A DNA stretch of 42,435 bases from Armatimonadota bacterium (GCA_016193565.1 JACPRY010000002.1:1-42435); one strand, 5' to 3'. Positions 38,466 through 41,755 are shown, counted from the stretch's first letter. A program made the numbers and translations. The notes: generated by a model not told the origin, from the letters alone.

Positions 38466-38753
38466 TTACCCGACAATGTGAAACCCCCGACCACCCGACG
38501 GCGCTTCCCACGTCATCTGGAGATCGTCCACCCGGGCACCCGAGGGGCCGGCTCGAATAGCCTCGATGAAGGTCTCGACCGCGTCCCGCGAACCTTCCAC
38601 CGCCGTCTCGACGCGGCCGTCGGGCAGGTTGCGGGTGAACCCCGACACCCCAAGCCGCCGGGCCGTGCGCTCTGCGAAGAACCTAAAGCCGACGCCCTGC
38701 ACGCTGCCGCGGATCCAGAGGTGACAGCGGACACTCTCAGGCACGTGCATCAT
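38466..38753 (-). CDS. acyP: Acylphosphatase
   Basis: G.VQGVGFR, G..RNL.DGRVE, GP..A.V; start approximate. Confidence 0.92.
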   Translation of the reverse strand: MMHVPESVRCHLWIRGSVQGVGFRFFAERTARRLGVSGFTRNLPDGRVETAVEGSRDAVETFIEAIRAGPSGARVDDLQMTWEAPSGGRGFHIVG

Positions 38754-39177
38754 CCTGCCCTGCTCCGGCCGGGAGCTTCCGGTACACGGCTCCCAGCACA
38801 CCGTTCACGAACTTCCCTGATTCGTCCGTGCCGTAGCGCTTCGCGAGTACGACCGCTTCGTTGATGACGACCCGTGCCGGCGTGTCGAGGTAGAACAGTT
38901 CGTACGTGGCCATGCGCAGGATCGTCCGGTCGGTGCTCGCGAGCCGGTCGACCGGCCAGTCCTTCGTGAGTGAGGCCAGCGTCCGGTCGATCTCGGTACG
39001 GTGTGTCCATGTCCCTTCACACAGTGCGCGGACGAACGGCCATTCCGACTCCGGAACTCCAGACTGAACCCGGGCGAGGGCCGCGGCCAGGGGGTGTCTG
39101 CCGACATCAACCTCGAAGAGGACGCGCAGCGCGAGTTCCCGCATCCGCCGGCGAGACCCCACTTTCGGCCGGCTCAC
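38737..39177 (-). CDS. nusB: Transcription antitermination factor NusB
   Basis: RRR.RE.AL..LF, DR.ILR, V.INEAV.LAK.YG, FVNGVL; start approximate. Confidence 0.94.
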   Translation of the reverse strand: MSRPKVGSRRRMRELALRVLFEVDVGRHPLAAALARVQSGVPESEWPFVRALCEGTWTHRTEIDRTLASLTKDWPVDRLASTDRTILRMATYELFYLDTPARVVINEAVVLAKRYGTDESGKFVNGVLGAVYRKLPAGAGQDDARA

Positions 39178-39266
39178 TGCATCGACGCTCCGGCGCGCCG
39201 CACGGCATGTGGCGACCACCAGTGTACCCGAGCAGCGGGCCGGCGGCGCAGCGAGGCCGAACCGCG

Positions 39267-39443
39267 AAAAGACCTACCGGATGAAGCACCAATCGATGTC
39301 TCTTGTGGGCAGGCGGTGAGGCCGGTGGATCTAGCACGTTGAAAACGAAAGGACCACCTTGCGGTGGCTTGATGGCTCGCCTGCCCAACCGGTTCGTTGG
39401 GCCCGGTCAGACACGCGTCAATCACCCGCGGGTGGCCCTGCAC
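39267..39443 (-). ncRNA. Putative ~177-nt structured non-coding RNA (6S-RNA-like rod or unknown class)
   Basis: Own promoter, 5'/3' closing helices with G-U pairs only on the minus strand, 10-bp UGGGCAGGCG/CGCCUGCCCA helix, CCACC-GCAA-GGUGG GNRA hairpin, 3' UUUU. Confidence 0.7.
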
Positions 39444-39449
39444 GGAGGT

Positions 39450-39478
39450 ATTATAGAGGGTCTATTTCACCCGTTCAA
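39450..39478 (-). promoter_or_regulatory. Near-consensus sigma70 promoter overlapping the efp 3' end
   Basis: TTGAAC (39478-39473)-N17-TATAAT (39455-39450) in a high-GC background. Confidence 0.8.
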
Positions 39479-40022
39479 GGTATTCGCCCGTGCGCGTGTC
39501 GATGCGCACGCGATCGCCTGCGGAGACGAAGAACGGCACCTGCACCGTGATCCCGGTCTCCAGCTTCGCCGGTTTTGAACTGCCGGCAGCGGTGTCCCCT
39601 TTCACTCCCGGCGGTGTCTCCACCACCTCAAGCTCCACGGCGTTCGGCAGCTCGACAGCGATCGGCCGGCCCTCGTAAAACACGACGGTGACATCGGTGT
39701 TTTCCTTCAAGTAGCCCACGGCATCGCCGAGCAATGCATTCGGGAGCGAGAGCTGCTCGTACGTCTGGTGATCCATCACGACGTACTCGCCCGCCTGCGA
39801 GTACAGGAACTGCATCGGCTTCCGATCGAGGTAGGCCTGGCTCACGCGCTCATCGGAGGTGAAGTTGCGTTCCAGCACGGCCCCGGTCTTCAGGTTGCGG
39901 AGCCTCGCGCGCACGAACGCCTGGCGCTGCGCCCGCTTGTGATGGTGTGTCTCAATCACCGCGTATAGGTCGCCTTCCAGCTGGATGACCACGCCCGGGC
40001 GGAGATCGCCGGTCGAGATCAT
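39462..40022 (-). CDS. efp: Elongation factor P
   Basis: AFVR..L.NL.TG, MQFLY, T.PGVKGDT, KPA.LETG..V.VP.F, DTRTGEY..R. Confidence 0.96.
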   Translation of the reverse strand: MISTGDLRPGVVIQLEGDLYAVIETHHHKRAQRQAFVRARLRNLKTGAVLERNFTSDERVSQAYLDRKPMQFLYSQAGEYVVMDHQTYEQLSLPNALLGDAVGYLKENTDVTVVFYEGRPIAVELPNAVELEVVETPPGVKGDTAAGSSKPAKLETGITVQVPFFVSAGDRVRIDTRTGEYLERVK

Positions 40023-41080
40023 AGGACCAGCAGCTCCTTCGGCGCGCGCGTGAGAACTTCACTGGCGTGGTCGCGGATCACCACGAGGTCTTCGATGCGC
40101 ACCCCGCCCCACCCGGCCAGGTAGATGCCGGGTTCTACCGTCACCACCATGCTCGCTCCGAGCACGGCGTCCTCACGCGGAGACAGCGTCGGGCCCTCGT
40201 GCACCATCAGGCCGACGCCGTGCCCCAAACTGTGCCCAAAGGCATCCCCGTAGCCAGCGCCGGCGATCACGTCGCGCGCCAGCGCATCGGCTTCCTTGCC
40301 CGTCATGCCGGCATGAATGCCGCGCACCGCCGTCTGCTGCGCCTCAAGGACGAGCGCGTAGACCTCCCGCTGCTTTGGTGACACTTCGTCGATCACCACG
40401 GTGCGCGTGCAGTCAGAGTTGTAGTGACGGTACACCGCCCCGAAATCCAAGGTCACGAGGTCCCCTGCCTGCAGGACGCGCTCGGCGGCGCGCCCGTGCG
40501 GGAGCGATGAGCGCGGGCCGCTGGCGACGATGGTCTCGAACGCCTCCTTGTCCGCGCCGTGGCGCCGCATGAAGAACTCCATCTCCAGGGCGATATCGCG
40601 CTCCACCGCCCCGGGCCGCAGGTACGAGCGGATGTGGGCGAACGCCGCATCAGCGATCTCGACGGCCTTCCGGATGCGCGAGAGTTCCTCGTCGTCTTTC
40701 ACCCAACGCGCCCGGTCCAGGCCTTCCATCGGCACCAATTCCGCCGGCTGAAGTCTTGTCGTGTAGTCCTGATACTGCTTGACGGTGACTGATTCGCTCT
40801 CGAAACCGATCCGCTTCCATTCCCGCTGCTGCACGAGCGCGGCCAGCGTTTCGATGTACTGCCGGTCGGCCTTCATCACCTCGAACTCGGGCGCCTCGCG
40901 TCCCGCCTGCTCCACGTACCGGAAGTCCACCAATAAGATCGCTTCTTTCCGCGTGACGATCGCGACGCCGTCGGAGCCAAAGAACCCCGTCACGTACGCC
41001 CGGTTCTCGGACTTCTGAATGAGCAGCGCATCCAGGTTATGCTGGCTGAGCATCGAGCGAACCCGCTCGAGTCGAGACAT
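40019..41080 (-). CDS. Xaa-Pro aminopeptidase (M24B; YqhT/PapA-like)
   Basis: N..Y.TGF.G, DFRY, PHG, DFGA...Y.SD.TRT, H.LGHGVG, EPGIY, GVRIED. Confidence 0.93.
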   Translation of the reverse strand: MSRLERVRSMLSQHNLDALLIQKSENRAYVTGFFGSDGVAIVTRKEAILLVDFRYVEQAGREAPEFEVMKADRQYIETLAALVQQREWKRIGFESESVTVKQYQDYTTRLQPAELVPMEGLDRARWVKDDEELSRIRKAVEIADAAFAHIRSYLRPGAVERDIALEMEFFMRRHGADKEAFETIVASGPRSSLPHGRAAERVLQAGDLVTLDFGAVYRHYNSDCTRTVVIDEVSPKQREVYALVLEAQQTAVRGIHAGMTGKEADALARDVIAGAGYGDAFGHSLGHGVGLMVHEGPTLSPREDAVLGASMVVTVEPGIYLAGWGGVRIEDLVVIRDHASEVLTRAPKELLVL

Positions 41081-41173
41081 CAAGATAACTACGCTCCTCG
41101 CGCAATCTGATCCTGACTTTGGTTCGTGAGTTCTGGTGGAATGGCCTTCTCCAGTCGCACCACGCATCCAACG

Positions 41174-41755
41174 TCATTCTGCGACGGCGGTTTCAGTTGG
41201 TCGAGCGGTCTTCATTGAGTGACGGACGAACTCCACATAGGCCGATCTCGCTCGACCGCGGTCTTCCGCCAGGAGCGCAAGTACCGGCGCCACGTCGACG
41301 AGAGAATCTCCACCATCGGTCGCATAGGCGCCAAAACTGCTCCACGGATACTGCTCAGGCTGCTCTACGATGCCGGCTCGCACGGGGTTAAGGTGTACGT
41401 AGCACGTCGACTGGAGAAGATCCTCATTGCGATCGATAACCCGGCCATGGAAGCGCGTCGCAAACAGGTGCCCCCGTCTGGTGTGTTTCCGATTGAACGC
41501 GATTGCGTAGCGACCGTGCACCCACCAGATGCTTTCGGAGACGTTGGGCTTCGTCGTCTGAATGACGAGATGGATGTGGGTAGTCATCAGTGCGTAGGCG
41601 AAGATGCAAGGGTCGCACTTTGCCTTGGCTTCGGCGAGTAGGATCAGGTACCGATACCGATCCCCGTCGTCCACGAAGAGTGCGTCTCCGCCGGTGGCAT
41701 GCGCCGTGATGTGGTAGGTGACTCCGGCACCAAGCAAACGGTGCGCCCTAGGCAT
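41174..41755 (-). mobile_element. REP-associated tyrosine transposase (RAYT, Y1_Tnp/HUH family)
   Basis: MPR start, YHIT, YALMTTHIHL (HUH), GHLF..RF, YVHLNPVRAG (catalytic Tyr), YPWSS. Confidence 0.88.

Follow-up and report, generated by a model that had tools for sequence, protein, structure and literature searches.

The efp gene in the window (the whole stretch of DNA analysed here, 42,435 nucleotides of the Armatimonadota bacterium genome GCA_016193565.1) encodes an elongation factor P (EF-P) with Gln as the tip residue in the loop between strands β3 and β4. This raises the question of whether the gene is intact, how it came by such a loop, and whether a factor with this tip works with or without a modification.

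The efp gene, its protein and its surroundings

The protein scores 244 bits with the efp profile TIGR00038 (cut-off 185.8) and 246.7 bits with NF001810 (cut-off 161), and PF08207, PF01132 and PF09285 are the Pfam domains precomputed for near-identical clusters. A model made with AlphaFold2, for which 66 of the best 120 hits among 90%-identity clusters were aligned (mean pLDDT 89.1), has the three-domain fold of EF-P, with a KOW-like domain I and two OB domains, and Foldseek matched this predicted model to solved EF-Ps at TM 0.89–0.95. The preliminary description had taken the gene for a genuine efp, and both the profile scores and the fold agree with it.

Translation of the minus-strand open reading frame gives HHHKRAQRQAFVR for residues 26–38. 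In phmmer alignments, which are free of gaps in the loop region, Q32 lies opposite the tip Lys of 1YBY (HVKPGKGAAFVR, KPGKG) and opposite the tip Arg of Thermus 1UEB (HQKLGRGGAKV; KLGRG). The predicted strands 18–28 and 36–43 bound a loop of seven residues, 29–35, and Q32 is therefore the loop centre. The gap-free placement of Gln at residue 32, first proposed in the preliminary description, was thus confirmed by alignment and by model. The tip is Gln32, not Lys or Arg. Since the entries accepted as EF-P in published surveys include proteins whose tip is Q, N, M, A, S or G (PMC6544042; PMC11611912), a charged tip is typical of EF-P but not defining.

The features of the locus are collected in Table 1. 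The open reading frames, the profile hits and the ATGA overlap also bear out the canonical pepP-efp-nusB arrangement that had been described. The true start of nusB is probably further inside its open reading frame, with the HMM match beginning at residue 22; beyond nusB, in the downstream direction, lie genes for an acylphosphatase, an FPP synthase and TlyA (tlyA). A promoter-like site (39450–39478, minus strand, 10 of 12 matches, by consensus match only) overlaps the 3′ end of efp. The consensus matches to a promoter and a hairpin suggest that nusB is transcribed separately from pepP-efp. Directly upstream of pepP is an open reading frame resembling a REP-associated tyrosine transposase (41174–41755, minus strand), which at 73.5 bits stays under the NF047646 cut-off of 80. 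No Rfam families were found within the whole window.

Table 1. Features of the efp locus, in coordinates of the window.
Feature	Position	Strand	Basis
efp, sole EF-P found in the 86.7%-complete genome	39462..40022	-	186 aa; ORF, family profiles and fold
H27 H28 and β3-β4 loop K29 R30 A31 Q32 R33 Q34 A35	39918..39944	-	codons 27-35
Gln32 CAG codon, loop tip	39927..39929	-	translation
Arg33 codon (+1), in place of Gly of the ancestral loop; proposed charge donor	39924..39926	-	
Domain I codons 26-57, with all 13 substitutions fixed in the Gln-type clade	39852..39947	-	
M24 Xaa-Pro aminopeptidase (pepP-like); TGA stop overlaps efp ATG (ATGA)	40019..41167	-	
nusB	38737..39219	-	TIGR01951 130.9 bits, cut-off 88.35
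Terminator-like hairpin, about 95 nt past the efp stop	39353..39368	-	consensus match only

Distribution and origin of the Gln loop

The genome that contains the window (G000) comprises 1.74 Mb in 183 contigs and is 86.66% complete. No second efp was found in it, either with the window protein as query or with TIGR00038 at E ≤ 10. Among 61 genomes of the same order that were searched, 53 have a full-length primary EF-P, three have only a distant paralog and five gave nothing. Twelve primary EF-Ps out of the 53 have the A-Q-R-Q loop (11 with K-R-A-Q-R-Q-A and one with R-H-A-Q-R-Q-A), hereafter called Gln-type, and the other 41 have a K-x-G-R-G loop in which x is R, L, V, I or K (Arg-type). These 41 include L023, a row belonging to the unpublished genome G033; leaving it out makes the count 40 of 52. 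The survey of loops across the lineage and the search for a canonical second copy, both proposed in the preliminary description, have thereby been carried out, with the same loop recurring in the order and no canonical copy found in G000.

The best 120 clusters at 90% identity from a collection of 5.8 billion proteins divide into 38 with an AQRQ loop and 82 with GRG. A degenerate DNA pattern for HH-x3-AQRQAFV, applied to one genome for each of 185,579 species, matched 12 loci, ten of them the efp of one lineage and two of them chance matches outside efp. The efp records matched by the pattern are named Armatimonadota, 'Bacillati bacterium ANGP1' and Candidatus Calidihabitans tengchongensis, the last of which is filed by NCBI under Candidatus Sysuimicrobiota, the former CSP1-3 (PMC11604079).

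Outside G000, the AQRQ efp is the only EF-P match in 8 of the 11 Gln-type genomes, including five that are at least 92% complete (G001, G002, G005, G006, and G011), and no EF-P with a Lys or Arg tip was found in any of the 12. The extra matches are a paralog with a GGGQ loop (G004, G010, and G012) and frame-broken Asn-tip fragments (G015). The latter, on the 3.7-kb contig C33 (L050), are two pieces with the loop T-P-G-N-L-R-A; present beside a Gln-type efp, they are either contamination or a pseudogene.

The GGGQ-loop paralog (loci L033–L048) is about 41% identical to the window EF-P and has the loop H-[AM]-G-G-G-Q-[ML]-[GS]-G. Besides the three Gln-type genomes it was seen in G029, G032, G035, G039, G041, G044, G045, G047, G050, G053, G056, G059, and G060, and it was not found in G000. 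Its sequence places a release-factor-like GGQ motif at the loop position that reaches the peptidyl-transferase centre, the KGDTA...KPA motif usual in domain III is missing from it, and the copy of G010 scores 176.8 bits on TIGR00038, under the cut-off of 185.8. For Cupriavidus necator H16 and Paraburkholderia, the published listing has second EF-Ps with a similar loop, AGGGQQGS (PMC11611912).

The Gln-type genes have a median dN/dS of 0.11 at a dS of 1.18 (66 pairs). Residues A31–A39 are invariant in 12 of 12 Gln-type genomes and have synonymous variants at eight of the nine codons; Gln32 itself is encoded by CAG in 11 genomes and by CAA in one. The fragmented state of G000, 86.7% complete in its 183 contigs, would leave room for an artefact, whether an error of sequencing or assembly, a pseudogene in decay, or a canonical efp within the 13% that is not assembled. 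Yet the same loop recurs in 11 other genomes, in 38 independent protein clusters and in ten species-level records, its reading frame is intact and under purifying selection, and the five Gln-type genomes of at least 92% completeness named above have no other efp. This recurrence and selection rule out a sequencing error, the objection raised in the preliminary description, or a pseudogene, and we give an artefact of any of these kinds almost no credence. The Gln-type efp is an intact gene under purifying selection in its ancestral operon.

In a maximum-likelihood tree of the 53 primary EF-Ps, built with the loop columns removed, the 12 Gln-type rows form one clade (support 85/92) with one change of state, and a single change was also obtained in 90% of the bootstrap trees. 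The clade is nested in starred sets with Arg-type EF-Ps of the same family, and the gene order pepP-efp-nusB-acyP is common to Gln-type and Arg-type relatives. As there is a single Gln-type clade and the gene order is unchanged, the switch from K-R-G-R-G-S-A-Y to K-R-A-Q-R-Q-A-F took place once and in situ, and the Gln-type efp has been inherited vertically within one clade of the CSP1-3/Sysuimicrobiota lineage. The loss of Pro and of both Gly residues, as the loop had been described, holds against an E. coli-type loop but not against its own ancestors: the ancestral loop K-R-G-R-G-S-A never had a Pro, and so only the two Gly and the Arg changed.

The switch was accompanied by changes outside the loop. 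All 13 positions that are fixed differently in the Gln-type clade fall in residues 26–57, in domain I. With the loop excluded, the divergence of domain I relative to domains II–III is 0.38–0.47 among Arg-types, 1.44 between the two types and 0.99 within the Gln-type clade. Likewise, conservation of domain I outside the loop and of domains II–III is 0.79 vs. 0.79 in the Gln-type clade and 0.92 vs. 0.80 in Arg-types. The 13 positions together with the divergence ratios point to a burst of change in the KOW domain at the switch and to looser constraint since. Judged from sequence, the looser domain I would fit the loss of an enzyme that recognised this domain, and a relaxed function would fit it equally well.

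The loop DNA of Arg-type (L013–L020) and Gln-type genes has the 8-mer GCAGCGCC in common, displaced by 5 nt and out of frame, so that it is read within GGC AGC GCC in the former and G CAG CGC C in the latter. For out-of-frame shared runs the mean longest is 7.1, and a run of 8 is reached in 0.7% of control windows. The shared 8-mer is a hint that the loop may have been recoded by a compensated frameshift, perhaps in one step, with extra substitutions still required. A further alignment took in the 150 nearest representatives of clusters at 50% identity (P0123–P0272). Several of those with an Arg tip have Ala at −1 (KRARGSA, KMARGSA, and KQARQAA), and such loops are possible intermediates between the Gly-flanked and the Gln-type designs.

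The confinement of all 13 clade-specific substitutions to residues 26–57 could also mean that domain I and the loop were not remodelled in place but imported by recombination from a foreign Gln-type efp, and the identity of the AQRQ core in Erysipelothrix (KTAQRQM) and in representative P0187 (KIAQRQA) would suit such an import. However, domain I outside the loop is 58–63% identical to that of the Arg-type sisters and only 27–52% identical to that of 11 Gln-tip representatives. A word search with residues 18–60 in the 5.8 billion proteins returned 34 candidates, all from the same clade. In addition, a FastTree of 191 rows (the 53 EF-Ps of the lineage and 138 of the 150 representatives, 12 with an unusual length or a tip outside K, R, Q, and N being left out) placed the 53 in one starred clade (98) without other Gln-tip EF-Ps. 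None of these three comparisons revealed a foreign donor of domain I, and we consider an import highly improbable.

Gln tips among the known types of EF-P

Tips other than Lys and Arg have been recorded before. In the Volkwein (2019) set of 1166 EF-Ps the tip is K in 81.1%, R in 14.75%, N in 2.23%, M in 0.77%, Q in 0.6%, and A in 0.51%; a Q tip never occurs with Pro at −2 and the only Armatimonadetes entry is P/K (PMC6544042). Sieber (2024) notes the existence of tips with Asn, Gln, Met, Ser, and Gly (PMC11611912). The matches listed in Suppl. Data 1 of that paper and in Dataset S1 of Volkwein (2019) include at least the following Gln-tip loops, each in a sole EF-P (PMC11611912): RAQQRKA in Brachyspira, KVAQGQA in Caldimicrobium, HMAQGQA in Dictyoglomus, KMQQRAP in Thermodesulfovibrio and Dissulfurispira, KTAQRQM in Erysipelothrix, RKAQGAA in Thermodesulfobium, and RKSQARA in Elusimicrobium. 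Because sole Gln-tip EF-Ps are already catalogued, the loop in the window is not of a new kind. The novelty first claimed for it was overstated, given published entries such as Erysipelothrix, Brachyspira, Dictyoglomus, and Thermodesulfovibrio, and the accompanying remark that the tip is normally Lys or Arg was incomplete, Q, N and other tips being present in the same two surveys.

Five types of EF-P are known, beside a large remainder with 'unknown modification' (two reviews of 2026, PMC12856214 and PMC13602936; Brewer and Wagner 2024, PMC11388002), and in the portions of these three papers considered here we saw no discussion of Gln tips. The literature searched gave no functional study of the activity or modification of a Gln-tip EF-P.

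Gaps or insertions in the loop led us to set aside six of the 150 aligned representatives. The tips of the 144 usable ones are K in 77, N in 28, R in 26, Q in 11, M in one, and I in one. Arg at +1 or +2 accompanies the Q tip in 11 of 11 (nine at +1) and the N tip in 28 of 28, compared with 0 of 77 for K and 4 of 26 for R; the 11 of 11 do not amount to 11 independent events, because the representatives are interrelated and were chosen by similarity to the query. None of the 11 Q-tip representatives has Gly at −1, Gly at +1 or Pro at −2, and the K-tip representatives have them in 76, 75, and 73 of 77, respectively. The window loop KRAQRQA fits the Gln pattern exactly, with its central Q, R33 at +1, and neither flanking Gly nor Pro.

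Among the published loop types, Arg is found at +1 in 4 of 8 and at +2 in Elusimicrobium. The AQG loops of Caldimicrobium, Dictyoglomus, and Thermodesulfobium have no Arg after the Gln, and for this reason the Arg rule is strong but not universal; the first or second position of their loop is basic, so that all eight types have either Arg at +1 or a basic residue at one of these two positions. Many Gln-tip lineages carry names that point to thermophily (Dictyoglomus, Thermodesulfovibrio, Caldimicrobium, Thermodesulfobium, Dissulfurispira thermophila, and Ca. Calidihabitans), unlike Brachyspira, Erysipelothrix, Elusimicrobium, and the soil ANGP1 genomes.

The published Gln-tip EF-Ps and the window EF-P share a seven-residue loop that has Gln at its centre, lacks Pro at −2, and carries Ala, Gln or Ser instead of Gly at −1, and the AQRQ core of Erysipelothrix is identical to that of the window. 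They are also alike as sole EF-Ps, which holds for G000 at its 86.7% completeness, three relatives adding the GGGQ paralog. In contrast to the published ones, the window EF-P has Arg also at −2 and a His triplet ahead of the loop, and it originated independently, within the Arg-tip CSP1-3/Sysuimicrobiota lineage. Its most fitting place is in the catalogued, uncharacterised Gln-tip class, as a member that evolved independently.

By loop ancestry, its closest solved relative is the Arg-tip EF-P of the Thermus thermophilus type (KLGRGGA; PDB 1UEB, and 4V6A on the ribosome). 1UEB matches the window EF-P with an E-value of 1.6e-50 and, for the predicted model, a TM of 0.89; neither is accompanied by EarP, and the other EF-Ps of the order, with K-[RLVIK]-G-R-G, are Thermus-like. 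Compared with this type, the tip Arg has become Gln, both flanking Gly have been replaced and an Arg has moved to +1. The actinobacterial PGKGP-type EF-P (PDB 6S8Z) is described as acting unmodified by means of a stiffened loop (PMC12856214), a principle that we propose for the window EF-P as well, although the PGKGP type has a tip Lys and two stiffening prolines, and the window loop has neither Pro nor tip Lys. EfpL/YeiP (PDB 8S8U), with its unmodified Arg-dependent loop (PMC12856214; PMC11611912), bears a likeness too, but its loop has nine residues with an Arg tip, it is a second copy, and the window protein stays below the NF003392 (142.3 vs. 216) and TIGR02178 (135.7 vs. 264) cut-offs with a loop of seven residues. 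Closest in the chemistry of the tip are the Asn-tip EF-Ps (T-P-G-N-[LKW]-R), which like the window EF-P have an uncharged amide there, with an Arg two residues later in 28 of 28; unlike it, they retain Pro at −2 and Gly at −1. A deoxyhypusine-synthase-like gene, which was not found here, accompanies Asn-tip EF-Ps in published tables (PMC6544042).

How the Gln-tip factor may work

Genes for the known modification enzymes, which the preliminary description had suggested looking for as epmA, earP and DHS, were not found. EarP (PF10093) was detected in 0 of the 61 genomes of the order; as a control, a single gammaproteobacterial genome gave no match and a wider draw of 41 gave one, at 337.6 bits. 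Deoxyhypusine synthase (DHS) was likewise found in 0 of 61, with the control detected in 6 of 14 genomes, and the best match to EpmA reached 67.1 bits against a cut-off of 286.9, the level of aminoacyl-tRNA synthetases only. PrmB was above its cut-off in 0 of 22 genomes of the family, and one PrmC-like methyltransferase was present in 22 of 22, with both loop types; in these 22 genomes no PrmB-type Gln methyltransferase was found to track the Gln-type. No candidate modifier gene adjoins efp, the flanks being the same in Gln-type and Arg-type genomes. Overall, no known modifier enzyme and no efp-linked gene tracks the Arg-to-Gln switch. The window EF-P also falls outside the EarP type, which combines a tip Arg with an EarP gene, and outside the EpmA- and DHS-associated types, having neither a Lys or Asn tip nor Pro at −2 nor the enzyme gene.

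We prefer the reading, with a probability of roughly 0.55 and on sequence grounds, that the window protein is a working sole EF-P which would need no modification and became Gln-type by convergence. The Arg-tip loop K-R-G-R-G-S-A would have switched once, in place, to K-R-A-Q-R-Q-A and so have converged on a rare class that is the sole EF-P of several unrelated bacteria. As other EF-Ps do, the factor would bind between the P and E sites, and the amide of Gln32 may together with Arg33 replace the single long cationic side chain, the positive charge then coming from the new Arg33 plus K29 and R30. Stiffening or lengthening of the loop is a known compensation in unmodified EF-Ps. By analogy with the prolines of the actinobacterial EF-P, Ala31 and Arg33 in place of the flanking Gly may stiffen the loop. 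Against a factor that works unmodified stand the Gln side chain, which has less length than that of Arg or Lys, modified or not, and may or may not reach the CCA end, and a Gln-type domain I that is no better conserved than domains II–III, which could reflect relaxed function. The lowest PP density sampled is also that of G000, a genome 86.7% complete.

Counts of PP and PPP, made on crude GC3-based ORF calls and, for the relatives, on partial samples of 73–335 kb, gave no sign of the polyproline depletion that would mark a failure of EF-P. In G000, PP was observed 1611 times against 1513 expected (1.06) and PPP 128 times against 83. On the same crude calls, observed/expected ratios for PP are 1.20 in a second Gln-type genome and 1.03–1.29 in four Arg-type samples, and for PPP 2.26 and 1.23–2.39, respectively. 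The PP density of G000 is 3.2 per 1000 aa vs. 3.6–5.5 in the other samples.

The low density, the uncharged tip, and the burst of change in a domain I that has since stayed comparatively loose would agree with a polyproline-rescue role that has been lost or changed, leaving a weakened or specialised factor or one with another job at the E site, and ABCF-like factors to cover the stalls. This is unlikely, since PPP is enriched in G000 on crude ORF calls, dN/dS is 0.11, the loop is invariant, translational coupling to pepP is preserved, and most genomes of the clade have no other copy; moreover, the same loop design is the sole EF-P in at least seven other lineages among the published entries (PMC11611912).

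The preliminary description had left the choice between a modification-independent type and a new modification chemistry, an interpretation that is partly supported here: both readings are live, and they are inseparable in silico. The Gln of the GGQ motif in release factors has an N5-methylated amide, and Gln32 or Arg33 might similarly carry a new kind of EF-P modification, such as N5-methylation of Gln, made by an enzyme whose gene lies elsewhere. Absolute conservation of the loop is what a recognition site of an enzyme would lead one to expect, a PrmC-like methyltransferase is at hand in all 22 genomes of the family, and about half of bacterial EF-Ps are placed outside the known modification classes (PMC13602936). 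Still, we find such a modification rather unlikely: there is no efp-linked candidate between flanks that are identical in both types, no PrmB reaches its cut-off in the 22 genomes, the PrmC-like gene occurs with both loop types and does not track the switch, and the looser domain I of the Gln-type is the opposite of what an enzyme recognising domain I would predict.

More speculatively, Gln-tip EF-Ps in general could represent, next to the extension of lysine and the rhamnosylation of arginine, a third activation chemistry in which the tip amide works with the adjacent Arg and is possibly N5-methylated. We would call this clearly unlikely. If it were true, the CSP1-3 lineage would record a switch from the Arg-type to the third chemistry within one bacterial family; the ancestral Arg-type would perhaps have had an unrecognised modifier, whose loss freed domain I to drift.

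What is added to the preliminary description is a single-origin switch from Arg to Gln together with a remodelled domain I. In recent reviews, in the portions considered, the EF-P tip is still given as Lys or Arg, and about half of bacterial EF-Ps fit no known modification class (PMC13602936); Gln-tip EF-Ps are one group in this unexplained remainder of bacterial EF-Ps. The organism from which the present Gln-tip efp comes is uncultured. The sequence rule, a nearby Arg and, in 11 representatives, no flanking Gly, leads to a testable hypothesis of how an EF-P may do without a long cationic side chain, and the single-origin switch, with Arg-type sisters in the same gene order, provides a natural matched pair.
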